Of a stretch of DNA of 64,000 nucleotides, positions 1 to 60,764 are shown piece after piece; position 1 is the first letter of the stretch; the number at the start of each line of letters is the position of its first letter. The position numbers and the translations under genes are program-made. The notes under the pieces were generated by a model that was not told the DNA's origin, searched no databases, and saw only the letters and a list, made by a program, of their open reading frames with translations. Source of the DNA: Stegostoma tigrinum (lineage: Eukaryota); contig NC_081388.1 of the NCBI RefSeq assembly GCF_030684315.1, positions 22,675,015 to 22,739,014 of the forward strand, written 5' to 3'.

Positions 1-2869
1 AATTCCCATGTATTGCTTGCATGGTGAAGCTGTGTTTATCTGGTCCTGTTTCAGAACAATGCTAAGATACCATTTTATTGAATCACTCTGGTTATAAAGT
101 GAAATGCATTGGGAGGCCATTCTGGTCATTGTGGTTCAGGTGGTTTTCTAGCTGCATCCTCATCTTGTCTCAAAATCTGCTGCTCAGAAAGCAGCCAAGG
201 TAAATTGCCCTTTCTACCCCTTTAATATCTATCAAGGCGATGAAGGTTTCTGGTATTTAACACAAAGTTTGAATGTTGCACAAAACTGAATTTTCTCTCC
301 TGCAGTTTCTGACAATTGTTAATTTCCTAGAGAGATTCACCACAGCCATTCCTTGCTGCCTTCCCCAGGAGATTACCCTCCCGCATAATGTGGAACACTT
401 CCCATTCCTTTTTCCAGCCCTCTGTCCCATGCCCTGTTCTGTTTGTGGCAATAATCAAGGATTTATTCTTCTGACTGGTGCAGTCTGTGCTTTACAGTGC
501 AACGCTACAGCAGCAGTGAAGCTGAGACCAGAGTGTAAAACCAGGTCACCATACGTTGTCATTCTGTTTTCATTGTCACCCTCGGTGCCCTTCCTCCTTG
601 CCTGGGACCTTTCAGCACTTGCCGTCTGTTGCTGTTCAAAACAATCTTAGTGTTGATTTAATTTCACCTCTTCACTGAGCATTCAGCTCTCCACTGTCTG
701 AGCCACTTCAAAGACTGTGGGTTTCCCTTTTCAATTTGCCTGTTTCTCTCATCCTCTCCAATTCCAATGATTTGCTTCACCTTTTCACCAGAATCTGCCT
801 GGGATTGGCACCTTGCAGCAGCCTCATCACCATCCACGCAAACAGGAGTCAAGAGCAGAACTTCTTGTCTGTCCCTGTGCTTTGTAAAATGGGAATACTG
901 AATAAATAATCTCCTCGCAGTGATGTTGTCTGACTGAACTCATGGCATTTTCTGTTTTAATTTAGTTTCTCCACAATTTCATGTTTTAATTTAACTTTGT
1001 ATGTTGCAACAGTTGTTGCTGTTTAGAGGAATTCATTGACTGTGAAATGACAAGGCGAATTACAAAGGCAAATTTTTGGCAACTCTTTTCTAAAATAGGC
1101 TGCAACTGAAGGATCCACCAGAGGGAGACCCAGTCATATTTTTAAGACCATAAGACACAGGAGCAGAAGTGGGCCATTCAGCCCATCAATTCTGTTGTGT
1201 CATTCAATCATGCCTGATCTGATAATCTTCAACTCAACTTTCGTACCTTTTTCCTACATCCATGAATCCCTTACAGGTTAAAAATCTGTCTCAGCCTTGA
1301 ATGTACTCACTGATCCATTCTCAACAATCATCTGCAGTAAAGAATTCCACAGATTCACTCCCTTTAATGAGAAGACATTCCTCTCTCTCCTAGTCCTGAC
1401 TGGGTGAGACCTTATTCTGAGATCATTCCCTCTTATTTTGGACTCACCCACAATGGGAAACAATCTCTCCACATTAACCTGTCACGTCTTCAAAGAATCT
1501 TAACACTTTTTGTTGATTTAGGAGATTAACCCATTTCGTGTTTTATTTCGAATATTGATACATTTCATTTCCAACTATTCAGGAGGGATCTCCCTTTGAT
1601 AATCTATTTGTAACTCAGTGCTAAGAAGAGTTGTTGCACTGCCAGTGGTTGGGATAGTACTTGAACAGATATCACTGACTGTCCAGGAGTGATGACCCCT
1701 GTGGCTGATCCTCCCATTTGGGAATGATGCCACCTACAGCTGACTATCTAGTGTGGGAGTGAGTGTGAGGATACTTGATGTGAGCAGAATTTACAGCTGC
1801 AGTTACACGACTTCTGCGGCTATCAAGCTTTGCACAATGGTGTTGATTTCAATGGAATTGTTTTCTGGGGCAGGAATAGGGTTGTGCCAGGTGGAGGAGG
1901 AGGGTGTGGTGGTGTTGATCTTGAACAGAATAGATAAGCAATGGGAAATTTTCCCTGCGTATCTCCCTCCACTAAGCACCTGTGAGAGGGGGGTTTTGAA
2001 TGAACAGGAATTGATCAGGTTAGACTTGATATTGCACTATGGAAACATTAGAGGCAGCCTGACAGTGGAGGAAAGCGTAGTTTGGTAAGGCCTGGGGAAA
2101 GGAAGAGAGGAACAGAGGATTCGCATGGGAAGGAGCAGAGGGAGAGCTAAGGAGGGGAGAATGGAGGGGCCTGGCCGATTGCTGAGGAACTCCAGGTTGA
2201 ACAGGATTCTGACAAAGTGGAAACTTCCAAACACCGCCCCCCCATCTCCTACCAGCCATGATTTCAGAACATAGCATTTGACAATACTTGGGGCTTCTTG
2301 CCCAGAATGAAACTATCCCTGTGGTTAGGAACATGATACCAATTGCTGCACTCCAGGGTCAGACAGTGGCTGTGTGGCTGTTTGTGTTTTGAGTTTCCCT
2401 CTTGTCAGATGATGTCTGTTGCTTCCATGTCAGTGACCAATTGCTGCTGTTATACTGCCTGTCCAGCCGATGGCAAATCGCCTCACATAGCCCGTCACAT
2501 CCTCTGACATTTCAAAATATCAGTAACATTTCAGAACTGGTTACAAACATTGATAGCATTCAGTCAGTGAGTGGTAAGAGCTAAAATAAGAGTGGCAGTA
2601 AAGTGATTCCCTCTTTGCTATTGTCACTGTGCCAATCTTTGAGATTATAGCAACAATTTGAATCAACATTATCAGTATCTTTAGACACTACAGCCCTTTC
2701 ACTAAACACGTCCCCCTTCATTGACGACCCCATGCTTCACTTCAGATCTGTCGACAGCTGGATGTTGAGATCGAGGTATTTGTGGTTTAGGAATTGAAAC
2801 TCTCTCTGAGTCAGCCTGTTCCCTTTCCAGACCTGAGCACAATGATCCCGGCCAAAAATTCAACACTAT

Positions 2870-3670
2870 TACACTGTCAAAGGGTCAGTTCTGAGGGAGT
2901 GCCGCACTGTCTGAGGATCACTGCTGAGGGAGCACCACACTGTCGGAGGGTCAGTGCTGAAGGAATGCCGCGCTGTCGGAGGGTCAGTGCTGAGGGACCG
3001 CTGCTCTGTCGAAGGGTCAGTGCTGAGGGACTGCTACACTATCATGGTCGGTGGTGAGGGAGTGCCGCACTGTCGGAGGGTTGGTGCTGAGGGAGTGGGC
3101 ACTGTCGGAGGGCCACTGCTGAGGGAGAGCCACGCTGTCGGAGGGTCAGTGCTGAGGGAACGCTGCACTGTTGGAGGGTCAATACTGAGGGAGTGCTGCT
3201 CTGTCGAAGGGTCAGTGCTGAGGGAGTGCTGCACTGTCGGAGGGTTGGTGCTGAGGTAGCGCTGCACTGATGGGGTTCAGTACTGAGAGAGTGTTGCAAT
3301 CCCATTAGTACTGACTCTCTGAAGTGCACACTCCTTCAGAATTGACCGTCCAACAGTGCTTCACATCTGCAGTACCAACTTTCTGACAGTGCATCACTCA
3401 CTCAGTCTGAACTTTCCGACAGTGCAGCAATCCCTCCGCACTGACCCTATGACAGTGCAGCACTTCATTAGTACTGACCCTCTGACCGTGCGGACTCCCT
3501 CAGTACTGATCAGTGGGGCACTCCTGCTGTACTGACCCTCTGACAGTGCAGCACTCCCTCAGTACTGACCCTCCAAAAGTACAGCACTCCCTCAGTATTA
3601 ACCCTTTGACAGTGCAGCACTCTGTCAGCACTGGCCCTCTGACAGTGTGGCACCCTCTCAGCACTGATCC
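2870..3670. repeat. 33-bp minisatellite in two oppositely oriented blocks
   Basis: Unit CAGTGCAGCACTCCCTCAGTACTGACCCTCTGA read on - in ~2870-3300 and on + in ~3305-3670; explains the 11-aa-periodic ORFs. Confidence 0.9.
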
Positions 3671-4309
3671 TTCATATTGATTCCCTCACTAGGAGTTCTT
3701 TTCATATCTGAGAGGGGGCAATTTCATTGATTTCCCTAACCAAATACTTGGAAATTAAACAATGATCTATCATTTCCAGTTCAGGAGGTCACTTTCTGTA
3801 AAACCTGTTCCCAGTTCAGGAGGGTAGTGAGTTTATTCAGTGAGAAAGTGAGCACGACCTTGATCATAAGCAGATTACAGTGCTGTCTTATGAGCCTTGT
3901 TTATCTGTCTCACCTATACACCATCCATGGCTCAGCCTAGGGAGATGTGAGGTTCCAATACTAAGATGGTGCATTGATAAAGCATCTTGACTGGATTAAA
4001 ACATCCCAAAGTGCTTCATGGGTGAGTCAGCCATCCGAACCTGGCACCAAGACGGACGGAGATAGTAAGACAAGTGAGCAAAGCTTGGTGAAAAAAGTAG
4101 GTTTCCAGGAGCGTCTGAAAGAGAGAGAGGGGAGAGTTTCAGGGAAATCATGGAAGGCCTGAGTGGCCAAGATCTGTGAAGTTTGTTGAGTGGAGCAGTT
4201 TACAGAGATAGGAACAATGCAAAAGTCTACAGTGAGGCTGGGTGTTGCTCAACCAGGACTCACTGCTCAGTGCAGAGAACCAGCTGATGAGTGAACTAGA
4301 CTTGGTGAC

Positions 4310-4500
4310 AGAGATAATGGGAACTGCAGATGCTGGAGAATTCCAAGATAATCAAATGTGAGGCTGGATGAACACAGCAGGCCAAGCAGCATCTCAGGAG
4401 CACAAAATGAAGGGTCTAGGCCCGAAACGTCAGCTTTTGTGCTCCTGAGATGCTGCTTGGCCTGCTGTGTTCATCCAGCCTCACATTTGATTATCTTGGA
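4310..4500. mobile_element. Penelope-like terminal mini-element (family A), inverted arms
   Basis: AGAGATAATGGGAACTGCAGATGCTGG... arm followed by its reverse complement; direct repeat GACTTGGTGAC at 4299-4309 and 4499-4509. Confidence 0.85.
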
Positions 4501-7425: not shown

Positions 7426-7535
7426 ATAAGTAAAGCATAAGAGTTGGAAGTAATACTGTTCCCATGACATTGCTGATCTCTCCTTGTCACTTTGAGAGGT
7501 TGTGGCCAGGCTGAATCAGCCAACTCAATCCACTC

Positions 7536-7760
7536 GAGATAATGGGAACTGCAGATGCTGGAGAATCCAAGATAATAAAGTGTGAAGCTGGATTAACACA
7601 GCACGCCAAGCAGCATCTCAGGAGCACAAAAGCTGACGTTTCGGGCCTAGACCCTTCATCAGAGCTCTGATGAAGGGTCTAGGCCCGAAACGTCAGCTTT
7701 TGTGCTCCTGAGATGCTGCTTGGCCTGCTGTGTTCATCCAGCTTCACACTTTATTATCTT
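7536..7760. mobile_element. Penelope-like terminal mini-element (family A), near-perfect palindrome with two hammerhead cores
   Basis: Symmetry centre AGAG|CTCT at 7664/7665; direct repeat TCAATCCACTCGAGA at 7525-7539 and 7760-7774. Confidence 0.9.
7665..7696 (+). ncRNA. Minimal type I hammerhead ribozyme motif (family A; mirror copy on - strand at ~7633-7664)
   Basis: CT-CTGATGA-A-GGGTCTAGGCCC-GAAA-CGTC-AG: CUGAnGA core, stem II GGGT/GCCC, GAAA, palindromic ACGT in place of stem III, GUC triplet. Confidence 0.75.
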
Positions 7761-9169
7761 CAATCCACTCGAGAACCCTTCAGAGTCCAATGAAATTCCA
7801 CTTGGAGTTCAGGGCTTCCCCAGAGTTCCCGAGTGGCTATATTCCACAGTCACCACTGTCTCATTGCATGATAACATGATGCTGATATTGCTGTCGAAAG
7901 TTAATGAACTGCTGAAAATATCACCACTAAAAATACTTTCTGTTGACCCAATTTCATTGAAATAGCTTTTGGTGATTAAACTGAAATATTGACTTGGAAC
8001 AGTGTTGAACCTTACAGCACAAGTTTAACTTTAATCCATGTGAGATTCTTTCCAGAAGGGAAAAATTAATACACTGGCAGTCAAATGGTGAGTTGGAGAT
8101 GAATAAACAACTTCCAAATTGCTTTGTCACCATGTTTCTGTTTGGCCTCCCTGCTCAGAATCTGCAGAATTACTTCATGTAAAACTGAAAATCAAGCTTT
8201 ATTGCTTTCACTGCAAATCTCATTGGTGAAAGGAGGTGGAGGGGGCGGAGTGAGATATCTGAGCTAATCCTGGATGGGCAAAGCTGATAAATCATACTGT
8301 GCAGATGAAGGTCTTTTTATTTTCCGCCTGACGTATGTTAACCCTGAACTGTCCCACCCAGCAGGTGACTGAGGCAGACACGAGGCAAAATTATGTTTCA
8401 TTCCTGGTACATTTCTAGTTAATACTCTAAAATCAATCAGTAAATGTTGCTAGGGAGAGTAACAGTCTGTTTTCTTCCTCCTCGTACATTTTCTAATGTA
8501 CTTCCCATTTGCTTCAGTGTGACAGCTGGTAAACATTTAGGCAATCTCCTCACAGCTCCTCTCCCCATCCCAATGTCAAGGCTAAGGGCCGGTTCAAACT
8601 GATTAAAAGGTGAATAATTTTACTGAGAAATCATGAATTCATTGTACAACAGAACAGGCTCAAGGGACTGATTAGTCTCCTATTCTAATGCGACCATCAC
8701 TGAATTCTACTTCCTTTACTGAAGGTACTGATGACTGTGGAGACTGTGTAGAGTAAGATGGCAGGCCTTGGCACTGAATGATGGCATTGGGTGGGGTTGG
8801 GGGTGGGGTGGGGGCTGAAGGGTGAATTCAGTGATTCTTTCCCGGTCATGTTCAGTGGGTGTCAGTTAATACATGGAGGAAAAAAGCCATTCTGGGTGGA
8901 CATGGTGTTCAAGTACCTGTCACACAGTCCATGAGCTTTGGCCTCCATGGTCAGGAGAATGTAAACAAAGCAGCAAGAAACAAAAAGCAAATGACCAGCA
9001 TTGAACTCAAAGAATTTAAAACTGAGTATCAAAGTCATTCCTTTCAGCTGAAATATCTTTTCTCCTTGCTATGCTCTGGTTTGGCTTTACCAACCAGTTT
9101 TATTGCAAGATGCCAGAAGACCATTCCTCACTGATAAATGATAAGTGAGCTGGACATAGATTATCGTCT

Positions 9170-10526: not shown

Positions 10527-10755
10527 GATCAGAGATAATGGGGACTGCAGATGCTGGAGAATCCAAGATAACAAAGTGTGTAGCTGGATGAACACAGCAG
10601 GCCAAGCAGCATCTCAGGAGCACAAGAGCTGATGTTTCGGGCCTAGACCCTTCATCAGAGCTCTGATGAAGGGTCTAGGCCCGAAACATTAGCTCTTGTG
10701 CTCCTGAGATGCTGCTTGGCCTGCTGTGTTCATCCAGCTACACATTTTGTTGTCT
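10527..10755. mobile_element. Penelope-like terminal mini-element (family A), palindrome
   Basis: Centre AGAG|CTCT at 10660/10661; 18-bp direct repeat TGGGAAGTAAGCATTTGT at 10509-10526 and 10755-10772. Confidence 0.9.
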
Positions 10756-10939
10756 GGGAAGTAAGCATTTGTTTATTGCTCATACAAAAACAAAATACCA
10801 TCAATGCTGGAAATCTGAAACAAAAACACAATGCTGGAGGCACTCAGTAGCTCTAGCAGTATCTTTGGAGAGAGAAACATAGTTCACATTTCAAATCAGA
10901 TAAGACTGTTCTTTTCAACTCTTTGGAAGATCATAAGAG

Positions 10940-11580: not shown

Positions 11581-14500
11581 GAATGTTGCTAAGAAGAGTC
11601 GTGGCTTTGCCTGGATTGTGTGTGATGACCATGGAGTCATCGTGGTCACCATGAAATGTCATTGGAGAGACCATGGGGGTGACCATGACATGCCCTCTTT
11701 GGAGGTGGCTGATCTGAACCTCTGCAGTACTGATGGATTTTGATGAGGGTGGGATGGTGTTTGTGAAACTGATTGAGTTGGGGGGTGTCTCTGATCCTGA
11801 AGGATTTTTGAGGGGCCCTGATTGAGATGGATTTTGGAGGGTCAGGGAAGTGCCTCTGATCCTGAGAGATTTTGAGGGTGGGTGAATCCGGTGGATTTTG
11901 TGGGGTAGGGGTTTGTCCCTGATCCTGATGGATTTGGGGGGTTTCTGATCCTATGGAATTTTTGGGAATTGTCTGATCCTATGTATTGTTTTGGGGGGGT
12001 TTATAATCTTGTAGATTGTTTTTTGGGGGTGTCCAATCCAATGGATTGTTTTCAAGTTGTCTTGTCCTATGGATTGTTTTTGGGGGTGGGGCATCTGATC
12101 CTATGGATTGTTTAAGGGGTCTGATCCTATGGATTTTTGGGAGGTGTCTAATCCTATGGATTGCTTTTTTGGGGGGGTGTCTGATCCTACGGACTGATTT
12201 TTAGGTTGGGGTCTGATCCTATGTACTGGTTTTTAGGGGTGTGTCTGATCTTATGGACTGGTTTTTGGGATGTGTCTGATCCTATGGACAGCTTTTTGGT
12301 GGGAGGGGTGTGCCATCTGATCCAATTGACTGGTTTTTGGGGGGTTTGATCCTATGGACTTGTTTTGGGGGGTGTTATGATCCTATGGACTGGTTTTTAG
12401 AGGGCGTCTGACTAAATGGACTGGTTTTTTGAGGGGGGATTCAGATCCTATTGACTGGTTTTGGGAGGATCTGATCCTATGGAATGATATTTTGAGGGGG
12501 GGGCTGAGTCTATAGATTAGTTTTGGGGGTGTCTGATCCTATGAACCGGTTTTTGGGGTGGTCTGATCCTGTGGACTGGTTTTTAGGGGCGTGTCTGATC
12601 CTATGGACTTTTTTTTCGAGGGGGGGGTCTGATCCTACGGACTTTTTTGGGGGGAATTCTGATTGTATGGACTGGTTTGGGGGTGGGTCTGAGCCGATGG
12701 ACTGGCTTTTTTTGGGGTGTCTGATCCTATTGTCTTTTGGGGGATTTTGATCCTATAGATTGTTTTTTTTAGAGGGACCTGATCCTAGGGATTGGTTTTA
12801 GGGGCTTCTGATCTTATTGACTGGGTTTTTTTGGGGTGGGTGTCTGATTCTATTGATTGTCTTTTCGAGGGGTTCTAATCCAATGGTTTTTTTTAGAGGG
12901 ATCTGATCTTAGGGACAGGTTTTCGGGTGTTCCGATTCTATTGACTGGTATTTTTTGTGGGGCTTAATGTCAGATCCTATTGATTGTTTTTTGAGGGGAT
13001 CTGATCCTCTTGACCGGTTCTGGGAGGGTCTTATGCTATGGACTGTTTTGGGGGGGGGGGGTGCGGGGCGGTCTGATCCTGTGGACTTTTTTGCGGGGGT
13101 TATATCCTCTGGACTGGTTTATGGGGAGAGTTTGATCCTAGGGACTGGTTTTGTGCGGGGAGGGTTCTGTCCTATGCACTGTTTTTGGGAGGGGGTCAGA
13201 TCCAATTGACTGCTTTTGGGGGGGGGTATGATCCTAGTGACTGGTTTTTGTGGGGTCTGATCCTATGGACTTTTTTTGGCCGTCTGATCCGAATGACTGG
13301 GTTTTGAGGGGGGTTCTGATCCTATGGACCAATTTTTGGAGGGATCCGATCCAACTGACTGGTTTTGTGGGAGTTCTGATTCTCAGGAGAGGTTTTTGGG
13401 CGGAGTCTGACCCTATGGACTGGTTTTTAGGGGCGTGTCTGATCCTGTGGACTAGTCTGATTCTAGGTACTGGTCTTGGGGAGTTCTGATCTGAGGGAGT
13501 GGTTTTTGTGGGGGGAGAGTCTGATCTTGTGGACTGGCTTTTTGGGGTCGTGTCTGATGCTAGGGACTGGTTTTTGGGAGGGTGGTCTGATCCTAGGGAC
13601 TGGTTTTTGTTGGGGGGCGGTGTGTCTGATCCTGTGGACTGGTTTTTGGGAGGGTGGTCTGATCCTAGGGACTGGTTTTTGTGGGGGGGGAGTATGTCTG
13701 ATCCTGTGGACTGGTTTTTGGGAGGGTGGTCTGATCCTAGGGACTGGTTTTTGTGGGGGGGTGTGTCTGATCCTGTGGACTGGTTTTTGGGAGGGTGGTC
13801 TGATCCTAGGGACGGGTTTTTGTGAGGGGGGTTCTGGTCCAAGGGACTGGTTTTTGGGAGGGGGGTGTGTGAATCCGAGGGACTGGTTTTTATGAGGGGG
13901 ATCTGATTCTGAAGGACTTGTTTTTGTCGGGGGTCTGATTCTGAGGGACTGGCTTTTGGGGATGGGGTGTCTGATCCTAGGGACTGGTTTTTGGGAGGGG
14001 GTCTGATCCTAGGGACTGGTTTTTAGGAGGGGGGTGTCTGATTCCGAGGGACTGGTTTTTGGAGGGGTCTGATCCGAGGAACTGGTTTTTGGGAGGGGGT
14101 GTCTGATCCTAGGGACTGGTTTTTGGGAGGGGTGTCTGATCCGAGGGACTGGTTTTTGGGAGGGAGGGGTCTGATCCGAGAGTCTGGTTTTTGGGAGGGG
14201 TGTCTGATCCGTGGGACTGGTTTTTGGGGGGCGTGGTCTGATCTGAGTGACTGGTTTTTGGGAAGGGGGTGTCTGATCCTAGGGACTGGTTTTTGGGAGG
14301 AGTGCCTGATCCTAGCGACTGGTTTTTGGAGGTGTTTGATTCCGATGACTAGTTTTTGAGGGGGGAGGTCTGATCCAGTGGTCTGGTTTCTGGGGGGTGT
14401 CTGATCCCACGGATAGATTTTTGGAGGTGTCTGATCCGAGGGACTGGTTTTTAGGGGGGGGGTGTCTGATCCAAGGGACTGGTTTTGGTGGGGGGGGGGG

Positions 14501-15461
14501 TGTCTGATTCTGAGGGACTGATTTTTCGGAGGAGTGTGTCTGATTCCGAGGGACTGGTTTTTGGTGGGTGTCTGATCCGAGGGACTGGTTTTTGGGAGGG
14601 GGGTCTGATCCTAGGGACTGGTTTTTGGAGGGGTCTGATCCTAGGGACTGGTTTTTGGGAGGGGGGGTCTGATCCGAGGGAATGGTTTTTGGCAGGGGTG
14701 TCTGATCCGTGGGACTGGTTTTTGGGGGTGGCGTCTAATCCTAGGGACTGCTTTTTGGGAGGGCGGTGTCTGATCCTAGGGACTGGTTTTTGGGAGGCGG
14801 GGTCTGATCCAAGGGACTGGTTTTTGGGAGGGGGGTTTGATCTGTGGGACTGGTTTTTGGGGGCGGGTCTGATCCTAGGGACTGGTTTTTGGGCGGGGGG
14901 TGTCTGATCTTAGGTACTGGTTTTTGGGATGGGGTGTCTGATTCCGAGGGACTGGTTTTTGGGAGGGGGTGTCTGATCCTAGGGACTGGTTTTTGGAGGT
15001 GTTTGATCTCGATGACTAGTTTTTGAGGGCGGGGGTCTGATCCTATGGTCTGGTTTCTGGGGGGAGTCTGATCCCACGGATAGATTTTTGGGGCTGTCTG
15101 ATCCTTGGGACTGGTTTTTTTGGGGTGGTATAATCCTGTGGACTGGTTTTTGCGGTGGGTCTGATCCTAGGGACTCTTTTTTGGGTGGATCTGATCCTGT
15201 GGACTGGTTTTGGCGGGGGTGTTTACAATCCTAGTGACTGTTTTTTGTGGGGTCTGATTCTATGGACTTGTTTTTTTGGCCGTCTGATCCGAAGGACTGG
15301 GTTTTGAGGGGGTTCTGATCCTATGGACCAATTTTTGGAGGGATCAGATCAAATTGACTGGTTTTGGGGAGTTCTGATTCTCGGGACCGGGTTTTGGGGG
15401 GAGTCTGTCCCTATGGACTGGTTTTTAGGGGCGTGTCTGATTCTGTGGACTGGTCTGATTC

Positions 15462-16067
15462 ATCATGGGCCTCCTGCACTGCCACAATGATGCCACCCAA
15501 AGGTTGCAGGAACAGCAACTCATATTCCGCCTGGGAACCCTGCAGCCATATGGTATCCATGTGGACTTCACCAGTTTCAAAATCTCCCCTTCCCCTACTG
15601 CATCCCTAAACCAGCCCAGTTCATCCCCTCCCCCCACTGCACCACACAACCAGCCCAGCTCTTCCCCCCCACCCACTGCATCCCAAAACCAGTCCAACCT
15701 GTCTCTGCCTCCCTAACCGGTTCTTCCTCTCACCCATCCCTTCCTCCCACCCCAAGCCGCACCCCCAGCTACCTACTAACCTCATCCCACCTCCTTGACC
15801 TGTCCGTCTTCCCTGGACTGACCTATCCCCTCCCTACCTCCCCACCTACACTCTCTCCACCTATCTTCTTTACTCTCCATCTTCGGTCCGCCTCCCCCTC
15901 TCTCCCTATTTATTCCAGTTCCCTCCCCCCATCCCCCTCTCTGATGAAGGGTCTAGGCCCGAAACGTCAGCTTTTGTGCTCCTGAGATGCTGCTTGGCCT
16001 GCTGTGTTCATCCAGCCTCACATTTTATTATCTTGGAATCTCCAGCATCTGCAGTTCCCATTATCTC
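15462..16067 (+). mobile_element. 5'-truncated Penelope-like element (family A) inserted in the satellite; GIY-YIG C-terminal remnant, pyrimidine-rich 3' region, hammerhead at 15939-15970
   Basis: Encodes MGLLHCHNDATQRLQEQQLIFRLGTLQPYGIHVDF (PLE endonuclease C-terminus, 'E...I..L.T..P.G.N'-like); flanking TCTGATTC at 15454-15461 and 16066-16073. Confidence 0.88.
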
Positions 16068-17397
16068 TGATTCTAGGTACTGGTTTTGGGGTGTTCTGAT
16101 CTGAGGGACTGGTTTTTGTGGGGGGAGTGTCTGATCGTGTGGACTGGGTTTTGGGGGGAAGGGTCCGATCCTAGGGACTGGTTTTTGGGAGGGGTGTCTG
16201 ATCCAAGGGACTGGTTTTTGTGAGGGGGTGTCTGATCCTAGAGACTGGTTTTTGGGAGTGGGTGTCTGATCCTAGGGACTGGTTTTTGGGAGGGGGGGTC
16301 TGATCCGAGGGAATGGTTTTTGGCTGGGGTGTCTGATCCTAGGGACTGCTTTTTGGGAGGGGGGTGTCTGATCCTAGGGACTGGTTTTTGGGAGGAGTGT
16401 CTGATCCGAGGGACTGGTTTTTGGGAGGGGCGGTCTGATTCCGAGGGACTAGTTTTTGGGGTGGGGTTGTCTGATCCGTGGGACTGGTTTTTGGGGGGGT
16501 GCCTGATCCGAGGGACTGGTTTTTTGGGGGGTTGTCTGATCCGAGCGTATGGTTTAATGGGGCGGGGTCTGATCCAAGGGACTGGTTTTTGTCGGGGGGT
16601 GTCTGATTCAGAGGGACTCCGTGTTGGGAGGGGGTCTGATCGTAGGGACTGGGTTTTGGGGGGGTTGTCTGATCCGAGCGACTGGTTTTTGGGGGTGTGC
16701 CTGATCCTCGGGACTGGGTTTTGGAGGGGTGTCTTATCCGAGGGACTAGTTTTTGGAGGGGGTGTCTGATCCTAGGGACTGGTTGTAGGGAGGGGGTGTC
16801 TGACCCTTGGGACTGGATTTTGGGAGAGGTGTGTCTGATCCTTGGGACTGGCTTTTGGGAGGGGCTGTCTGACCCTTGGGACTGGATTTTGGGAGGGGTG
16901 TGTCTGATCCTAGGGACTGGTTTTTGGGGTGGATCTGATCCTGTGGACTGGTCTTTGGAGGTGTTTGATCCCGATGACTAGTTTTTGAGAGGGGGTCTGA
17001 TCCTGTGGACTGGTTTTTTGGCGGGGGGGGGCTCTGTTCGTAGTGTCTGGTTTTTGGAGGGGGTATAAGCCTGTTGACTGGATTTTGGGCTGGGACTGAT
17101 CCTGTGGACTGGTTTTTGGAGGTTTTTGAGGGGGGGGTCTGATCCTGTGGTCTGGTTTCTGGGGGGTGTCTGATCCCACGGATAGATTTTTGGGGGTGTC
17201 TGATCCTATGGACTGTTTTTGGAGTGGTCTATTCCTGTGGCCAGTTTTTGGGGTGGTCTAATTCCTGTACACTGGATGTTGGTAGGGGTTCCGATCCTGT
17301 GGATTGGTTTTTGGGGCGCGACTGATTTTAGGGACTGGATTTTGGGGCGGGATTGATTTTAGGGCGGGACTGATTTTTGGGGCCGGGGTCTGCTCCT

Positions 17398-17471
17398 GGG
17401 CCTGCTGTGTCCACCCAGCCCCACACTTTGTTATCTTGGGTTCTCCAGCATCTGCAGTTCCCATTATCTCT
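17398..17471 (+). mobile_element. Short family A terminal fragment just upstream of the CDC37 promoter
   Basis: GGCCTGCTGTGTCCACCCAGC...CCAGCATCTGCAGTTCCCATTATCTCT. Confidence 0.8.
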
Positions 17472-17474
17472 GAT

Positions 17475-17636
17475 CCTCGGGACTGGTTTTGCCGTCCCGA
17501 CAAGGGAGACGTTGACATCATGGAGCTGGGCGGTGACAGTCGGCGGAAGTGACGTGTGTCCGGAAGTGACGTGTAGAGAGGCGGCCCAGCGAGTGTTCTA
17601 GAAGCTGGGCCTGGGACAATTGGAGACGGGGAAACG
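17475..17636 (+). promoter_or_regulatory. CDC37 CpG-rich core promoter/5' UTR with GC box and two ETS-CRE composite motifs
   Basis: GGGCGG at 17528; CGGAAGTGACGTGT at 17544 and 17561; local CpG enrichment extending into exon 1; no TATA box seen. Confidence 0.8.
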
Positions 17637-21848: not shown

Positions 21849-22246
21849 TAGCGAGTTTTGAGAAGATTTGTAGCTCAGGTTGAGGTTCTGGATGTGAGTT
21901 TGCTCGCTGAGCTGGAAGGTTAGTTTTCAGACGTTTCGTCACCATTCTAGGTAACATCATCAGTGAGCCTCCGACGAAGCGCTGGTGTTATGTCCCGCTT
22001 TCTATTTATCTGGTTCGGTTTCCTTGGGTTGGTGATGTCATTTCCTGTTCTTTTTCTCAGGGGATGGTAGATTGACTTGGAGCCAATGTGTTTGTTGATG
22101 GAATTCCGGTTGGGATGCCATGCTTCTAGGAATTCTCGTGCATGTCTCTGGCTTGTCCTAGGATGGATGTGTTGTCCCAATCAAAGTGGTGTCCTTCCTT
22201 ATCTGTATGTAAGGATATGAGTGATAGTGGGTCATGTCGTTTTGTT
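21849..22246 (-). mobile_element. Penelope-like element 3' end (family B, Poseidon-type) with hammerhead
   Basis: Minus ORF QRHAREFLEAWHPNRNSINKHI (GIY-YIG C-terminus); 12-bp TSD TGAATTCAAAGC at 21837-21848 and 22247-22258. Confidence 0.88.
21927..21966 (-). ncRNA. Minimal hammerhead ribozyme motif (family B)
   Basis: Minus strand TCA-CTGATGA-T-GTTACC-TAGAAT-GGTGAC-GAAA-CGTC-TGA: 6-bp stem II, 3-bp stem I, intact core. Confidence 0.78.
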
Positions 22247-32916: not shown

Positions 32917-34331
32917 CCCCGTCCCTCATCTGCTTAAGAGTTCATCCTTACCCTCAATTATTCCTTTAACCCCTTGCACTTTGTACAAACTAACAGGGTG
33001 GCCATGGGACCGAGCTATGCCTGCCTCTTCGTAGGATACAAGGAACAGTCCATGTTTTGCTGCTACACTGGCACTATCCCCCACCTCTTCCTCCATCACA
33101 TCAATGACTGACTGTATCAGCGTTGCCTTGTGCTCCCACGAGGAACTTGAGCAGTTCATCAACTTGACTAACACCTTTCACCCCAACCTCAAGTTCACCA
33201 GGACCATCTCCAGTAGCTCCCTCTCCTTCCTGGACCCCTCTGTCTCTGTCTGTGGTGACCACCTTGAAACTGACATCTGTTTCAAGCCCACCAACTCCCA
33301 CAGCTACCTGGAACATCACCTCTCACCCACCTTCCTGCAAGAATTCCTCCGCCTCTACCACATCTGTCCCCAAGATGGGATGTTCCACTCCCACAAATCT
33401 CAGATGTTGTCCTCCTATTTCAAAGACCATAACTCTTCTCCCTGCCCATCCCCTTCTGTGATCGAAAATGCCCTCAAATGGATCTTGCGTTTCCCGCACC
33501 GCTGCCCTTATGTCCTTTTCTTCCCCTGCCAATAAAAACACAGAATCCCCCTTGTCCTCATATATCACCCCACCAACCTCCACATCAATGGAGCATTTTC
33601 CGCCACCTACAGTCTGACCCCACAACCGAAGAGATATTTCCCTCCCCACCTATATCTGCCTTTCGTAGGAACCACTGTCTGTGACTCCCTCGTCTACTCC
33701 ACACTCCCCACCAACCCCTCTCACCTGGCATCCTTCCCTGCAACTGCAGGAAGTGTCTGTCAGTGGTCTCCTGCATCCGTTGCTCCCAATGTGGCCTCCT
33801 CTACGTTAGTGAGACCAAGTGGAGGCTCAGACTGTTGGGTAGAGCATCTATGCTCTGTATGTGACAGATGACGATAACTTCTGACTCTGAACCATTTTAA
33901 CTCTTTCCCTGCCCCCTGAGTAATATGTCCATCCTGGGCCGCCTCCAGTGCCACAATGCCACCCACAAACTGGAGGAGCAGCACCTCATGTTCTGCTTTG
34001 GGTGCCTACAGCCCAATGGCCTAAATGTGGACTTCAGTGTTAAAATCTCCCCAACCCGGCCTTATCCTATAACCAACCCTGCCTTGTTGATCTGACACAA
34101 CCTGCCCATCATCTTTCCCACCTATTTGTCCCATCCACCTCACTCACTAATCCCAACCACTCCCTAAGTGCACTCGCCTTTCACCATCCCACCTACCTTT
34201 CCAGCCCCACCCCTCCACTCTTTATTTCTGAGCTTCCTTCTCCTTCCCCACTTCTGAAGAAGGGTCCTGATCCAAAACGTCAGCTTCTCTGCTGCCTGGC
34301 CTGCAGTGTTCCTCCAGCTCCATATTGTTAG
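32917..34331 (+). mobile_element. Decayed Penelope-like retroelement (Neptune-type): RT C-half, Cys linker, GIY-YIG, terminal degenerate hammerhead
   Basis: G-VAMG...PSYACLFVGY motif (~32995-33040), ELEQFINLTNTFHPNLKFT..SLSFLD..FKPTNSHSYL, PCNCRKC linker, CSQCGLLYVSET; CTGAAGAAGGG...AAAACGTCAG at ~34254; possible TSD CCCACAG (32910, 34332). Confidence 0.88.
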
Positions 34332-38870: not shown

Positions 38871-40354
38871 TCTTTACTTGTCTTTATTGCTGGTGCTTAG
38901 AAACACAATTCAGTCGGAGTAGGCCATTTAATAAACTGGTAGCTGATCTAATTGTAACTTCAAGTTTGCATTTTTTAGGCCACCCTTACTTAATGAGAAT
39001 TTGTTGACTTATGCCATAAAATTCTTAAAGGACTTTTCTTCAGTTTATTTTTTGGTTTAGGAATAGGGTTTGAAAAAGACTTTCAAGGGCGTGAGTGGTG
39101 GGGGAGTAGCTGCCTAATCTGTCTTAAATGGGTAAATCTTGATTTTTTAAGTGATATATGGTTCTAGATTCTCACACAAGAAGAAACACTCAAACCTCAC
39201 ATCTGGTATGCTTCAGGCATTACAGCCCCTTAAACTTTAGTAAAGTCTGTCAAGTGTTCCTCAAAGATAAACGTGCATTGAGCAGGTTTAATCTAAACTT
39301 CTGAGCTGCCTGCAATGAAGTTGTGTTCTTTGATAAGGAAGGCGACTAATAACAGATACTACTGCAGATGCAATCTCCTCCACCCTGTGTTAGTGCAGTA
39401 TAACCTCTCTCTTTACATATTCAGTTCCTCTCGCAATAGGTCAAAATGTTGCATTAGCTTTCCTAATTATTTTCTTGGTCCTGGAGATGGGCCTTCTACA
39501 ATTTGTGCAGCAGGGTGAATGTCCAAGCTATGTCAGTCTCCTACCACATACATATTTATGATTTGTTGACAGTTACACATTTTTTGACATTGAAATCTAT
39601 TAGCCGCCTCCTTGCCTTTTCAATGTCCTCTTCGCAACTTTGGCAGACATGAAGAAGGGTAGAAAACAATTTGTATTGACCATATCATACCTCCCTTCAT
39701 CCTAGTCATTTAACATGTTGCAGAGGTTCCTGCTCCAACACCTGTGGCACACTACTGGTACATTTTGCTAATTTAAAAAATACCCATTAATGTCTACTAT
39801 CTGCTTCCTGTTAGCCCATCATCCACTTATCCATGCCAACTTGATACCCCTTTGGACCATCAGCTTTTATTTTCCATTTATGGTTGATGGGTATCTGATC
39901 AAAGTATCTGACGTTGGTATCCTTCCTGTTGTTCAATTACACAACCTTCAAGCCTTTTAGGTGTTGTAATGAAATGTACATTGACTCTGCAGGTAACATG
40001 CAGGATTTTTGTGTCTTTGAGTGTGCAGGATGAACAGCTTGCAATGATTTAAGAATCATCGCATGTTGTCATGGACCAAGACAAGAATAAAAGAATCATA
40101 TTCTTGTAGTGAGCCTTCTTTCCAAGCTGCTCTAGTTCCTAAATCAACTTTGACAACTCCATTGCCCTGATCGTTTCCAATTTGATGACCCCCTTCTGCA
40201 TTGGCTCCGGGTTGAATATTATTGCTTGAGGTTTAATTGGTTGTTTCAACAAACTGCAAAGTGCTTTGTTGTATTAGCACAAGGCCTGTGTCAGCTATTT
40301 TTGTGGACATTTCACTTATTTTCCTGGAACTAACTACACATGGATTGCATTCCT

Positions 40355-40452
40355 CTCTGAGGAAGGGTCTAGGCCTGAAACATCAGCTTTTGTGCTCCTG
40401 AGATGCTGCCTGGCCTGCTGTGTTCATCCAGCTCCACACTTTGTTGTCTTGG
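40355..40452 (+). mobile_element. Family A single-arm mini-element
   Basis: Begins at CTCTGAGGAAGGGTCTAGGCCTGAAACATCAG; direct repeat TGGATTGCATTCCT at 40341-40354 and 40450-40463. Confidence 0.85.
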
Positions 40453-42376
40453 ATTGCATTCCTTCCCTACTTCCTTTTCCAAGCCTTGCTGTCTATTCTA
40501 AACATTTGACCACCTTTCTATCTCTACCACACCACCTTAATGGATTATCATCAGCTCTGACATCTGATTATTATTTCATCTTTCACCCACTCTTTTCCAT
40601 TCCCTGCTGTGTCTGACCCTCCTGAATGTCATGTTGATGTTTTTGTCATCTTAATAAGATGGGACTAATAATGACTCTTCAGGGTTTGAATAATACTGGG
40701 GATTAGGAGATTTAAAATAATCAATGATACGCAGCAGATGATAAAACAATAAACCATCTGTGTGTGCAGCTTGCAAATCTATTGCAAACTGACTGCTGGG
40801 TAGAGTTCCAGAGTCCTTAAGATGAGTTCTTCGTTGCAATCACCTCCTTTCCATAGAAGAATTCCTGTAATTTCATGCTGCATTGGAGACTCTCCTCACT
40901 TCCTGTTCTCATTTCGTTGTATGTTGATGAATTGCTGTTTATTTAAAATATCTAAATATCAACGAGGCTATCTGACCCATTTATTTGTTTCCTCTAATGA
41001 CTGTATTATCCTGACTGTGCCCAAACCAATTATCCTCATCATTTTCAAGGTGTACACCTAATCTCAAGAACCTTGTATTTTCTCTGCTCTGTCTCATAGC
41101 TGTCACAAAACATTATGCAATGACAAATCTGTTCAAATGTTCTCTTGTTTATAGCTACTGCTGACCATCTCCCAGTCTTACTGAGTTGCCCTAGAAAATT
41201 CACGTTTTCTTAGTGAAAATTTGTCTACATCTAACAAATGATTTGCTATTTGCTTTAATTTCAGGCTTGACCATGTGGGACAGGCTATGTATTTGGTCAA
41301 ACCATTTTGCAAGATGTACCTCAAGCAGCATTTCTGGAGAACGATTCACTTCCTGAAGCTCCGGTTTCTCTACTCATTTTTTTTAAAAAGCCCATATTTT
41401 ATTGTTGGTTCTCTTTCTCAGTCAGTTGGTTTGTACCGTAGATCTGTAGGGCTGTTCGGGGAAAAGTCCCCAAACAAATGCTGTCACTTTTTCACTACAC
41501 TTTCCTACCTTCATTGTCTCTTCAGCATGGCTGCTGTTTGAGTTACAGCCTATAAAACTGTAATGTCTATACCTCTGAGCCAGGAGGCCAAGGTCCAAGC
41601 ACAACAACTCGAGCGTGTGTAAAAATGTTTCTGACAAGGTTGATTTGGAAATAATGTAAAACCATAAGACATAAGAACAGAAGTAGACCATTTAGCTATT
41701 AATGAGATTATGGCTCTTGTGAAATTCTTCCTCTCTTTCTTTCAAATGGGTGACCCCTTACTTTGAGATTATGTCACTGTGGTCCTAAGTGTTTCCCACA
41801 AGGGGAAACAATCCACATCCACTCTGGCAAGACCTTGAAGAATTTTATGTTTTAATAAGTTCACCTCATTTTTTTTGTCAACTCCAACGAGTGCAAGCCC
41901 AATTTCTCCTTTGTAAGAAAATCTCACTATATTTGGAATTAACCTTGTGAACCTTTCCAGATTGTTTCCAATGCTGATGCCTTTCTGGAGATAAGGAAAC
42001 CGGAACTGTACAGAATTCCAGCTGTGGTCTGATGAGTGTTTTAATACTCCGCACTCGCCTGGATGGGTGTCGCTTCAACAACAATGAAGAAGCTTGACAC
42101 CATCCAGGACAAAACGGCCCCCACTTGATTGGTACTACACCCACAAGCATCCACTCCATCACCACCAATGTTCAGTAACAGCAGCGTGCACTGTCTGCAA
42201 GATGCACTGCAGAAATTCACCAAAAATCCTCAGGCAGCATCTTCCAAACCCACAACCGCTTTCATCTAGAAGGATAATGACAGATATAAGGGAACACCAC
42301 CCCCTGCAAGTTCTCTCTTCTCTCCCCCCCCCCCCCCATAGAATAAATCAAAACAACTCGGACACTAGTTTTTTCT

Positions 42377-49859: not shown

Positions 49860-50074
49860 TATAACAAAGTGTGGAGCTGGATGAACACAGCAGGCCAAGC
49901 AGCATCCCAGGAGCACAAAAGCTGACGTTTCGGGCCTGGACCCTTTATCAGAGAGGGGTCCAGGCCCGAAACGTCAGCTTTTGTGCTCCTGAGATGCTGC
50001 TTGGCCTGCTGTGTTCATCTAGCTTCACACTTTGTTATCTTGGATTCTCCAGCATCTGCAGTTCCCATTATCAC
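49860..50074. mobile_element. Family A palindromic mini-element
   Basis: Inverted arms joined near 49955; TSD AAATCATGAAATAT at 49845-49858 and 50075-50088. Confidence 0.88.
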
Positions 50075-54050: not shown

Positions 54051-55496
54051 CAAAAGGTGGCAAATGGAGTTTGATATAATGTGAGGATAAATGTGAGGAG
54101 ATTCACTTTGGGAAGAACAATGGGAAGGCAGAATACCGGGGCAATGGAAAGATTCTTGGTAGTGTGGATGTGCAGAAGGATCTTGGTGTCCATGTACATA
54201 GATCCCTGAAAGTTGCCACCCAGGTTAATAGTGCTGCTAAGAAGGCTTACGGTGTGTTAGAGATAATGGGAACTGCAGATGCTGGAGATTCCAAGATAAT
54301 AAAATGTGAGGCTGGATGAACACAGCAGGCCAAGCAGGATCTCAGGAGCACAAAAGCTGACGTTTCGGGCCTAGACCCTTCATCAGAGAGGGGGATGGGG
54401 AGAGGGAACTGGAATAAATAGGGAGAGAGGGGGAGGCGGACCGAAGATGGAGAGTAAAGAAGATAGGTGCAGTTCATCCCCTCCCCCCACTGCACCACAC
54501 AACCAGCCCAGCTCTTCCCCCCCACCCACTGCATCCCAAAACCAGTCCAACCTGTCTCTGCCTCCCGAACCGGCTCTTCCTCTCACCCATCCCTTCCTCC
54601 CACCCCAAGCCGCACCCCCAGCTACCTACTAACCTCATCCCACCTCCTTGACCTGTCCGTCTTCCCTGGACTGACCTATCCCCTCCCTACCTCCCCACCT
54701 ACACCCTCTCCACCTATCTTCTTTACTCTCCATCTTCGGTCCGCCTCCCCCTCTCTCCCTATTTATTCCAGTTCCCTCCCCCCATCCCCCTCTCTGATGA
54801 AGGGTCTAGGCCCGAAACGTCAGCTTTTGTGCTCCTGAGATGCTGCTTGGCCTGCTGTGTTCATCCAGCCTCACATTTTATTATTACGGTGTGTTAGGTT
54901 TTGTTGGTAGAGGGATTGAATTCCGGAGCCGTGATGTCATGCTGCAACTGTACAAAACGCCAGTGCGGCCTCATTTGGAATATTGCGTACAGTTCTGGTC
55001 GCCCCATTACAGGAAGGATGTGGAAGCATTGGAAAAGGTGCAGAGGAGATTTACCAGGATGTTGCTTGGTCTGGAGCGCAGGCCTTGTGAAGAAAGGCTG
55101 AGGGACTTGGGTCTGTTCTCATTGGAGAGAAGGAGGCTAAGAGGGGATTTAATAGAGACAGACAAGATGATCAGAGGATTAGATAGGGTGGACAGTGAGA
55201 GTCTTTTTCTGAGGATGATGACTTCAGCTTGTACAAGGGGGCATAGCTACAAATTGAGGGGTGATAGATTTAAGATAGATGTCAGAGGCAGGTTCTTTAC
55301 TCAGAGTGGTAAGGGTGTGGAACGCCCTGCCTGCCAATGTAGTTAACTCAGCCACATTAGGGGCATTTAAACAGTCCTTGGATAAGCATATGGATAATGA
55401 TGGGATAGTGTAGGGGGATGGGCTTAGATTAGTTCACAGGTCGGCGCAACATCGAGGGCTGAAGGCCCTGTTCTGCGCTGTATTGTTCTATGTTCT
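54051..55496 (+). mobile_element. Young 5'-truncated CR1 LINE
   Basis: ORF LQLYKTPVRPHLEYCVQFWSPHYRKDVEALEKVQRRFTRML...RRLRGDLIE; tail TATTGTTCTATGTTCT. Confidence 0.92.
54259..54885. mobile_element. Family A Penelope-like insertion with inverted terminal segment and two intact hammerheads, nested in a CR1
   Basis: TSD TTACGGTGTGTTAG at 54247-54260 and 54884-54897; CTGATGA cores at 54794-54800 (+) and 54380-54386 (-); body near-identical to 15600-16030. Confidence 0.9.
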
Positions 55497-56151: not shown

Positions 56152-56282
56152 GGTTCTGAAGAAGGGTCTCGGCCTGAAACATCAGCCTTCCTGCTCCTTT
56201 GATGCTGCTTGGCCTGCTGTGTTCCTCCAGCTCTACACCTTGTTATCTTGGATTCTCCAGCATCTGCAGTTCCCATTAACTC
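56152..56282 (+). mobile_element. Family A-related terminal fragment
   Basis: TTCTGAAGAAGGGTCTCGGCCTGAAACATCAGC...CCAGCATCTGCAGTTCCCATTAAC. Confidence 0.8.
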
Positions 56283-59170
56283 GATGTTTTGTTCTCTGTC
56301 ACATACTTTAAAGATTTGCTTTTGTTATTTAAAGTTGAGTCATTTTTACTCAATTATTTAAATTGCTTCAGCTGTGTTTACTCTTCCTGTGTGATGTTTT
56401 TGGATAGATTTTTCACAGCAGATTGGTGAGGTGCAGGAAGAAGAAAGTGTGTTTACCAAACATCTCATCTTATGAACAGCTCACAAGAGAAACAGAGCAG
56501 AAGTAGGCCATTTAGCTCATCAAGTGAGCCCTGCCTTTTAATTAATTACAGCTAATCTGATATTCTATTCCCCCCCCCCCCCACCCTTCTCTCCAAAGAT
56601 GCTACTGGACGTGCAAATTTACTTATAGAATTTTCTGTTTTTTTTATTTCTATGCTCTGAATTTGCAAGCCAGGAGTATATTGGAAGACCACCCACTTGC
56701 CTGAATGGTGTAGCTTTGACAACAACCACAAGAAGCTCCACACCATTCAGGACAATTTGATTGGCACCCCATACATAAACATGTACTCCAGCTACACCAA
56801 ATCTCAGCAGCAGAGTGTGCCATCTACAAATGGCGCTGCAGAAATTCACCAAGGCTCCTTTGACAGTACTTTTCAACCTCCTGACATTTTCCACCTTGAA
56901 AGACAAGGGGAACATATACATGTGAACACCATCACCTACAAATTCCTCTCTAATCCATGCAGTATTCTGATGTGGAACTGTACCTCTGTTCTATACCATT
57001 GGCTCAAAAATCTTGAAACTCCCTCCTTCACCGTGTTTTCATGAGCTACAGCTGTTCAAGAAGGCAGCTCACCACCATCACCTCCAGGGCAATTAGGGAT
57101 GGGCATAGTATCTTAATTTACACATCCTATATATGGACTTTTAAAGATGTTGTTGTTGTAAAAAAAGAAATATCTCCTCTGTCATTTGGAGGGGAAGGTG
57201 GTCCCAGTACACATTTGTCATGCTGAGAAGTTTGCCTTATTTCTTGTTTTTAATGTATTCTTTTAGTACTTTGTTTTTCTGGACCTGTTTCTATGGTGGC
57301 ATTCTTAGCTTGTCCTTATTTGAATGGCACTCCAGGAATGTGTGGAGGATAATTGGTGCTGAACACTCCCAGTGCTGTGTTGGGGAGTGCTGCAGTGGCC
57401 CCTTGTTGGAATGGATGCAAAACATCTCCAAAACGCTATTGAGAAAAGAGAGGGGGCGTTTGCTTTTCCTTGAGTTTGAGCAAACAGTCCTCCGTCATCC
57501 AGCAGCATCAAAGCCTGATGCTGCTGTTTTTATTTAATTTTTGGCTGCCTCGTTTCTTTACAAAGCACCACTTTACAAACTGTGAAAGTCTTTAGTGTAT
57601 CCAAACTGCTGTAGGCATACAAGGTTTTTATTTCTGCTCCAGTTTGCTATAGATACTTAGAGGATTCTTGGATTCAGTGTTTGCAGCCAGCTGTTGGGAT
57701 TTTGGAGTAATTTCCCCTTCATTCTCTCCTGCTGTATCCTGCCTCCCGCATCCTCCCAATCCCCAAACACCAGAACCCTTAGCGTGGATGGGATTGGAAT
57801 GTGAGTGCGTATCCATTTGGTCAACAGTGCATTGAACCGCTCGGCTGCTCCCTGGCCAGTTTGACATTTTATTGTCTTGTGATATTAGAGTTAGTTTCAT
57901 AGCACAGTGAGATTGAGCCAGAGAAAGTGATTTGGATGTGTGCCTGAAAGATTTTTAAAAAAATATAAACTATTGATTTACGTAAGAAGAGGACAGTCAG
58001 GAATCAGCTTGTGAGCAGAATCGATGCAGTGGTTGAAGACTTGTACTTAATGACCTCCAATCCAATAGCAGCCTTTCAGTCATTGTTTTGCTGGATCAGT
58101 TTCTAAGAACTTAAGAATTATGAGCTTGAGTAGGTTATTCAGTCTGAAAAGCTTGCTTCACCATGCACTATGACTGTGGGTGATTTCATGCTTCACTGAA
58201 CATATCCAGTCATATGCTATCCCTAATTGGCTCAGAGATCGAAAATCTCCAACTCAGCCTTAAACATATTTAAATATGATGTATCCACAGTCCTCTGGGG
58301 TAAAGAATTTCAAATATTCATCCCCTTTGAATGAGAAAATTTTTAATTATCTCAGTTCTGAAAGGGTAGGTTGCTTATCTTGTTGCACCTCCTTATTCTA
58401 AATTCCAAGTTCTTCAGCCATGGGAAATGACCTCTGTCTGTCAGCCCTGTGAAGCCCCTTCATATCTTGAATGTTTGAATGAAATTGCCTCTTGTTCTTC
58501 AACTGGAGAGAATACAGACCCATTTTACTGTGCCTTTCACAGTAGGACAGCGCTGTCAATCCAGAGACCAATTGACTGAAACATTTGTGTAAATTTCCAA
58601 TGTACGTCTATCCTTTTTTGAATATGGAAATCGAAATTGTATTTTAGGTAAGATTACATCAGAGCCCTATGCTATTGTAGCAAGTCTTATTTCTTTGTGT
58701 CCCAGTCCCCCTAGGGTAAAGGCCAAATTGCCACTTATTTTCCTGACTGCTTGCTGTATCTGCACGCTAAGTTTGTGTTCGTATGAATAACCCCAAATTT
58801 ATGTGAATATCAACACCTCCAAGTTTCACAACCTTTTTTAAAAGAAACCTATCTGCTTTTCTCCTCTTGGAGCAAGCGCTAAATGTGTTGTTAGGTACAA
58901 CTGACGCACCTGCCTTTGATCTCCTGCAGTCAGAAATCTCTTCCTCACTGCTTTCGTCCAATGTCTCTGAATTAAGTCTCAATCAGTTCCATTTCTAGCA
59001 TAGTCAAGCCAGTCAGCTGTGATTCGCTGTCAACTACAGTCTCTGTTCAGTGCAACCTTATGGTCCACCATGAGCAATGGCTCTGCTCTTAATCAATTAA
59101 CATGCCCCATAGTCCACATTGAACATGGGTTAGTAAGAAACTATTCTCAAACTCCGTCAGCCAGCCAACC

Positions 59171-59458
59171 TGGGGTCTAGGCCCGAAACGTCAGCTTTTG
59201 TGCTCCTGAGATGCTGCTTGGCCTGCTGTGCTCATCCAGCCCCACACTTTGTCTCTGTATCAATTTGCCCTGTTTGATGAACTTATTTCCATACATTGCC
59301 CTTACTGTCTTGGTATGGAACTACTATTACCTGTTTGTTGCACATCCCCCTCTGATAGCTTTTGTGCTCCTGGGATGCTGCTTGGCCTGCTGTGTTCATC
59401 CAGCCTCACATTTTATTGCCTTGGAATTTTCCAGCATCTGCAGTTCCCATTATCTCTC
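59171..59458 (+). mobile_element. Two family A terminal fragments (~59171-59252 and ~59357-59458)
   Basis: GGGGTCTAGGCCCGAAACGTCAGCTTTTGTGCTCC... and AGCTTTTGTGCTCC...CCCATTATCTCT. Confidence 0.8.
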
Positions 59459-60555: not shown

Positions 60556-60757
60556 ATAACAAGGTGCAGAGCTGGATGAACGCGGTAAGCCAAGCAGGAA
60601 AGCTGACATTTTCGGGTCTGGACTTCAGAAATTTCTGAAAAAGTGTCTAGGCCTGAAACGTCAGCTTTCTTGCGCCTCTGCTGCTTGGCCTGCTGTGTTC
60701 ATCCAGCTCTACACCTCGTTATCTCAGATTCTCCAGCATCTGCAGTTCCCACTATTT
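60556..60757. mobile_element. Diverged family A-like palindromic mini-element
   Basis: ATAACAAGGTGCAGAGCTGGATGAAC...TTCAGAAATTTCTGAA...GTTCATCCAGCTCTACACCTCGTTAT; flanked by CATGATAGTTTT(C/A)AAGG at ~60538 and ~60758. Confidence 0.75.
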
Positions 60758-60764
60758 CATGATA

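Follow-up and report, generated by a model that had tools for sequence, protein, structure and literature searches.

The repeat analysed in the 64-kb window (the whole stretch of DNA under study) is the 3' terminus, or pseudo-LTR, of a Penelope-like element (PLE). With high confidence, we assign its motif to the minimal type I hammerhead ribozymes (min-HHRs), carried in the pseudo-LTR of a young PLE whose linker is of Neptune/Nematis type. Cleavage of the element RNA after GUC likely requires dimerisation or assistance by the protein of the element, and the window copies are likely inert by-products of abortive insertions. The pairing of PLEs with hammerheads is already known (Cervera and De la Pena 2014, PMC4209133), and the present family, termed family A, adds another case. 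The kind of motif is unsurprising. What is added is its scale, about 10 times the largest per-genome counts in the cited sections of PMC4209133 (counting methods differ), and an excess of insertion junctions at the predicted cut, which offers a testable lead on an open question.

The exact 32-mer motif occurs five times in the window, at every position where a first-pass annotation had placed an intact copy (Table 1). Allowing up to three mismatches gave nine matches in the window versus none in 100 shuffles, and a loose core pattern gave eight matches versus a shuffle mean of 1.0; one of these eight (21934-21963, minus strand) belongs to a different family. The family A motif has the min-HHR layout, with CUGANGA, stem II, GAAA and UH in type I order. 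An unpaired A lies between A9 and stem II and is followed by the G10.1-C11.1 pair, as in the other family consensuses. In the family A parent, stem I has 2 bp, stem II has 4 bp with a CUAG loop, and ACGU takes the place of stem III. The core, paired stem II, GUC triplet, stem I of ~2 bp and self-complementary ACGT proposed by the annotation are thus all present as described, and C17 was found at 7694 and 15968, its two proposed cleavage positions. Eight further copies had been described as altered or truncated. Five of them (4408, 34252, 49953 on the minus strand, 59163 and 60633) have a broken or truncated core, and those at 10661, 40355 and 56154 retain the core letters. An Rfam scan of the window at E up to 5 gave 13 matches, of which none was to a hammerhead family; the lack of helix III in the motif makes this the expected outcome. 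The matches were hairpin-type miRNA and snoRNA families only, all below the gathering score, and are attributable to the palindromes.

The segment 7536-7760 is a single insertion consisting of two 5'-truncated PLE 3' ends placed head to head without spacer and joined at 7664|7665. Its plus arm ends ~35 nt short of the minus arm, which reaches the tail end. Target duplications of 10-18 nt were found for 8 of the 10 window insertions tested, and each insertion tested has its own junction and its own duplication. In a genome sample, 3' ends concentrate at two places ~35 nt apart, with and without the tail. Inverted copies, junction palindromes and an optional tail are hallmarks of PLEs according to the cited sections of PMC8557442 and PMC3846280.

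Table 1. Coordinates of the focal hammerhead motif, its parts and the PLE-derived insertions in the window
Feature	Position	Strand	Details
Minimal type I hammerhead motif	7665..7696	+	exact 32-mer; predicted cut after 7694
Stem I of focal plus-strand motif	7665-7666 with 7695-7696	+	
CUGAUGA of focal plus-strand motif	7667-7673	+	
Stem II of focal plus-strand motif	7675-7686	+	
GAAA of focal plus-strand motif	7687-7690	+	
ACGU of focal plus-strand motif	7690-7693	+	
Mirror copy of motif	7633..7664	-	exact 32-mer; predicted cut after 7635 on minus strand
Inverted arm: PLE 3' end with ~35-nt tail	7536..7664	-	96% to 15939-16067; 5' end lies 2 nt ahead of C3
Direct arm: PLE 3' end without tail	7665..7760	+	arms 98% complementary, 0 nt apart
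Left target-site duplication, 15 nt	7525..7539	.	overlaps element end
Right target-site duplication	7760..7774	.	
Second head-to-head insertion, same centre as focal	10528..10760	.	motifs CpG-decayed; 18-nt duplication
Longer 3' fragment	15617..16068	+	pyrimidine-rich 3' region, intact exact motif 15939-15970 (+), tail
Head-to-head insertion	54259..54884	.	intact exact motifs 54357-54388 (-) and 54792-54823 (+); 14-nt duplication
Head-to-head insertion, truncated motif	4309..4500	.	11-nt duplication
Head-to-head insertion, core mutated or truncated	49861..50072	.	14-nt duplication
Short copy, start just 5' of core	40352..40455	+	core letters kept; 14-nt duplication
Older-subfamily copy, N7 = A	56155..56284	+	core letters kept
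Copy starting at first base past predicted cut	59357..59457	+	10-nt duplication
Copy truncated within stem II	59173..59250	+	
Older decayed head-to-head insertion, core broken	60556..60763	.	12-nt duplication
Old decayed copy, core broken	34242..34326	+	
3' fragment without motif	17391..17477	+	

A full-length parent supported the proposal that the repeat is a ribozyme-bearing PLE terminus. One locus elsewhere in the genome (L290, minus strand) holds a complete unit with two motifs 3,528 nt apart around an ORF encoding reverse transcriptase (RT) and GIY-YIG, and both pseudo-LTRs carry the motif at this locus and at a second one (L292). Longer copies extend upstream to the GIY-YIG and RT coding sequence. 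The L290 ORF, in a frameshifted copy, contains DKG, the RT motifs, a CNRRKCYTC linker and a GIY-YIG core with two cysteines. Pfam assigned GIY-YIG to one piece of the ORF (E 0.00075, below the curated cut-off) and nothing to the other two. The parent ORF has 137 homologues of 847-2,415 aa (best E 1e-133); among the best 120 of the 137, all contain PF26215 and PF28514, most PF00078 and some PF01541. The element has the features of an EN+ PLE, namely a single ORF with RT plus GIY-YIG at its C terminus (in a frameshifted copy, with the GIY-YIG score below cut-off), pseudo-LTRs, an inverted 5'-truncated copy, an optional tail of 30-40 bp and a target duplication. Ahead of the DKG region, the N-terminal part of the ORF also contains a short TADGTPP-type tandem repeat.

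Close parallels are found among Neptune and Nematis, EN+ PLEs that, in the cited sections of Craig et al. (2021, PMC8557442), share the RT, the C-terminal GIY-YIG with internal cysteines, the inverted 5'-truncated copy and the optional 30-40-bp tail. A CX2-5CxxC linker is common to both, and by that definition the CX4CxxC sequence of the parent points to Neptune or Nematis. Poseidon, as described in parts of Frangieh et al. (2024, PMC11167929), lacks the linker. The Anolis Poseidon element PAc of the same study nevertheless has two 3' ends that define a tail, there tied to two RT start sites, and a hammerhead near the ORF start, as does the present parent. Here the long ORF has its first ATG ~138 nt past the cut, whereas in PAc the ATG is within stem II. 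Both target strands are extended in vitro by PAc, which fits the head-to-head pairs seen here.

Metazoan PLEs, among them fish Xena, Poseidon and Neptune, are known to carry min-HHRs in their pseudo-LTRs, and the cited sections of PMC4209133 match family A in type I order, the extra base between A9 and stem II, the G10.1-C11.1 pair, the palindromic 15.2-16.2 and the lack of helix III. The motifs likewise occur in both pseudo-LTRs, in copies that are mostly solitary with some opposite-strand pairs, and the sequence homogeneity of family A resembles the D. virilis case. Both stem I (2 bp) and stem II (4 bp) are shorter in family A. A literature search found no paper on shark PLE hammerheads, although supplementary listings may contain shark motifs, and one supplement of PMC4209133 has no shark term. 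The sole match for shark, Penelope and hammerhead ribozyme was PMC6155905, where 'hammerhead' refers to a shape in the part concerned.

Across the 3.2-Gb assembly we counted 45,079 + 45,237 = 90,316 exact copies of the 30-mer and none of its reversed control, which bears out the expectation of a very large number of hammerhead motifs in this genome. By comparison, the cited sections of PMC4209133 give ~4,000 motifs for coelacanth and ~9,000 for Xenopus, with different counting methods. The density was 30 per Mb in a 1.134-Mb sample and 28 per Mb genome-wide. In that sample, the family A core was intact in 79 of 124 core-spanning copies, extrapolating to roughly 200,000. The downstream 25-mer of family C has 16,983 exact copies. 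One sampled block (contig C10) contained a duplicated segment, half of which was left out of later counts. Near-identical segments ~93 kb apart in this contig (L051-L070, 30.0-30.2 Mb), and a 99.97% identical pair in contig C1 (L278/L279), are segmental or assembly duplications.

A descriptor of the core and four stem II pairs gave 97 matches in 1.134 Mb versus 0-2 in five shuffles. The matches group into four families (A, B, C and D) plus subfamilies. The descriptor does not demand the stem I pairs or the stem III palindrome, and the consensuses were compared by eye. The first two stem I pairs are Watson-Crick in all seven majority lines (143, 28, 68, 20, 2, 6 and 6 copies); across the seven consensuses, pair 2.1-1.1 is U-A, A-U or C-G and pair 2.2-1.2 is C-G, U-A or A-U. 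As stem III palindrome, families A and C carry ACGU and family D carries AGCU, and the family B majority is CpG-decayed. Stem I and the palindrome thus change compensatorily between families, while N7 is the sole core position that varies between consensuses. The family C hammerhead in the window (21934-21963, minus strand; element ~21850-22200) has a 6-bp stem II and a 3-bp stem I and represents a second young PLE family. A script search found no ORF for family C.

In folding predictions, the monomer preferred base pairing between its core and the cut region to the hammerhead-like fold (-11.4 versus -3.6 kcal/mol), which fits the low or protein-dependent activity reported in parts of PMC4209133 and PMC11167929. 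Stem I, 2 bp in family A and 2-4 bp in the others, is unpopulated in the monomer fold. Stem II does not form in longer context, and for two monomers the ACGU dimer (-13.3) was less stable than an extended duplex (-38.0). On these folds, activity would likely need help, as reported for PAc. Family A could also be less active than its relatives, since its stem I has 2 bp compared with 4-5 bp in Schistosoma (PMC4209133, cited sections). We rejected the idea that the focal locus is itself active, as the entire insert is predicted to fold as one hairpin (96 bp, -187.6 kcal/mol) rather than as a ribozyme.

The same-strand tandem layout required by a dimer model is absent in most copies, which are solitary or head-to-head. 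Nine regions selected for their close or tandem matches included three tandem arrays with an intact motif in each unit: six units of 329 nt (L281, 1134-3550), four of 293 nt (L282, 1411-2432) and four of 362 nt (L283, 1256-2520). These tandem units are natural dimer substrates. They also have at least two head-to-tail units with complete motifs, as defines non-LTR retrozymes; the window copies do not. Animal non-LTR retrozymes, in the cited sections of bioRxiv 10.64898/2026.07.22.740005, are likewise tandem units of ~300-360 nt derived from pseudo-LTRs, each with an intact motif, and include those of one chondrichthyan with a mean unit of 363 bp. The solitary or head-to-head window copies differ from them in this respect.

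With so many young copies, the 5' ends of insertions provide a direct and cheap test of cleavage. Starts were counted as copies whose two bases before the given start differ from the parent. Genome-wide, 3,494 family A copies start at the first base after the cut, compared with 699 at +1, 584 at +2 and, in a narrower class, 265 at -1 (~400 scaled). Cut-site starts make up no more than ~2% of all family A copies, whose number is estimated at 209,000. An unbiased 1.06-Mb sample showed no peak at the cut, where 4 of 226 matches start; this sample is too small to show one. Of 30 cut-site starts sampled, 9 survive once near-palindromes and cases with microhomology are set aside. Scaled up, microhomology-free starts number ~1,050 at the cut (95% range ~500-1,700), versus ~580 at +1 and ~350 at +2. 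Perfect palindromes centred on GGCC number 257 in stem II and 23 downstream, and junctions with 1-20 nt extra at the centre number 222 in total.

Family C has no palindromic word at the cut and serves as a replicate. Its narrower class holds 76 cut-site starts, compared with 50 at +1 and 14 at -1; these single-arm classes also contain small internal deletions. By eye, all 30 close head-to-head junctions of family C have 24 of 60 arms at the cut, with 4 at +1, 6 at -1, 7 at +2 and 19 farther upstream, and spacer-free palindromes lie exactly at the cut in 4 of the 30. Family D contributed six junctions, too few for this comparison, and family B was left out, its palindrome spanning the cut. The excess of cut-site starts may record, at the DNA level, cleavage that took place in vivo, a reading that we hold tentatively and at somewhat less than even confidence. 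With the same reserve, we suggest that the genome could keep a fossil record of germ-line PLE hammerhead cleavage, in which the thousands of starts at the first base past the cut would reflect run-off on self-cleaved RNA and the class with an extra 5' G would mark a capped end two bases before the core. If this is true, insertion junctions would be in vivo evidence for PLE hammerhead cutting, and assemblies alone would allow cleavage to be compared between families. Our literature search found no paper on genomic 5' ends at a PLE hammerhead cut.

Such an excess could also arise if the hammerhead were a relic that no longer cuts in family A, the 5'-end peak coming from cDNA joining at the self-complementary AGCT and from local microhomology; we regard this as possible but lean against it. 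Consistent with a relic, 17 of the 30 sampled family A cut-site starts share 2-4 nt of microhomology with the partner arm, and a control position lying 7 nt downstream, for which the anchor was shifted, reached 1,621 starts, so that positions differ several-fold for sequence reasons alone. The focal type of spacer-free palindrome, centred two bases before C3, has 347 genome occurrences. Within the older AGCC subfamily, where the test covers only partners extending past the cut, there were no palindromes at the cut in the best 50 of 55 junctions, and by eye 6 arms lie at the cut, ~12 at +1 and ~23 at +2, mostly via CCTTC microhomology. In Anolis, moreover, the cited sections of PMC11167929 report no RNA-seq reads ending at the site, whereas here genomic 5' ends are in excess at the cut. 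However, the equally self-complementary ACGT five bases upstream centres 39 perfect palindromes, compared with 709 for the post-cut AGCT. In family C, the 24 of 60 arms and the palindromes of 4 of 30 junctions lie at the cut without any palindromic word there. The youngest family retains the core, and pairings covary between families.

Alternatively, the structure might be kept for a non-catalytic role (protein binding, dimerisation or an RT stop), with the peak reflecting stalling at a helix. The 6-bp CUGAUG/CGUCAG helix reaches two bases into the 3' product, so that RT would halt near its end, and core mutants leave in vitro insertion unaffected in the cited sections of PMC11167929. We think this improbable, as helix stalling predicts +2 starts, yet the +1 and +2 classes fall far below the cut-site class; the family C helix also ends at +2 but its peak is at the cut, and the catalytic core letters, beyond those needed for pairing, are retained across families. 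About as unlikely is a non-autonomous family, SINE-like or of retrozyme type, made up of the short copies and spreading as its own small RNA. The many 5' ends within ~10 nt of C3 and the arrays of 293-362-nt units with intact motifs would suit that idea, but the 5' ends of short copies are scattered over ~80 nt, longer copies reach the GIY-YIG and RT region, every tested insertion has its own junction and duplication, and neither unit length nor junction is shared among the three arrays, as would be expected of one-off products. That a chance likeness was amplified by the copy number of an unrelated repeat is hardly credible and, short of biochemistry, already refuted by the covariation between families. 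The core is short enough for the loose pattern to match roughly once in 64 kb by chance, and the motif is unscored by Rfam, yet four families with different stems and flanks share the core order and show compensatory pairs, and the motif lies in the pseudo-LTR of an RT and GIY-YIG element.

The reading that we prefer, a min-HHR in a young PLE, would operate as follows. Reverse transcription would start 60-100 nt downstream of the motif, with priming from both target strands, and two short cDNAs would be joined head to head, so that almost every new copy, however short, would include the motif wholly or partly. Abundance would then be uninformative on function at each locus, since an RT start downstream would carry the motif into most copies. 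Most templates would be uncut, with many stopping slightly short of C3, perhaps where a capped RNA begins, and the minority of at most ~2% may derive from RNA cut beforehand at the ribozyme site. The likely setting for the ribozyme itself is a tandem transcript, in which it would work as a dimer or aided by the ORF protein and cut a minority of molecules.

Most short copies in the sample start within ~10 bases of C3. Starts two bases before C3 after a purine number 3,142, with G in 85 of the first 100. Among 30 junctions inspected by eye, where the partner arm does not supply the template the base is G in 17 cases and A in 2; some of these G's are part of the target duplication. Full-length LINE insertions carry a cap-derived G, which the extra G at these starts resembles. 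The starts two bases before C3 are possibly a capped RNA start. Two cDNAs each ending in an added C and annealed by GC might explain the palindrome centre in the window. The extra G before such copies (L231-L260; in the window 7664|7665 and 10660|10661) lies in a pyrimidine-rich context.

Several further features were observed. Some head-to-tail joins (L202/L203, L204/L129, L136 and L137) fuse tail-end or beyond-tail sequence at or just before the cut base, two of them as 100-nt units, and fit a template jump after run-off. In the window, an RT-region fragment at 33003-33755, with 72% identity to the family A parent, lies upstream of the decayed copy at 34242. An inverted repeat at 42412-42753, with 124-nt arms around a hairpin and a centre that by eye resembles the family C 3' region, is likely another head-to-head PLE insertion. 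A pyrimidine tract at ~15895-15918 ends with CAG ~22 nt before C3 and is a possible 3' splice site, comparable to that close to the D. virilis motif in the cited sections of PMC4209133. A large G/T-rich tandem array of ~31-34-nt units at 11780-17380 hosts the inserted copies at 15617 and 17391, and two other tandem arrays were found, one of 33-nt units with an inverted part (2806-3672) and one of 43-nt units (50194-50615).
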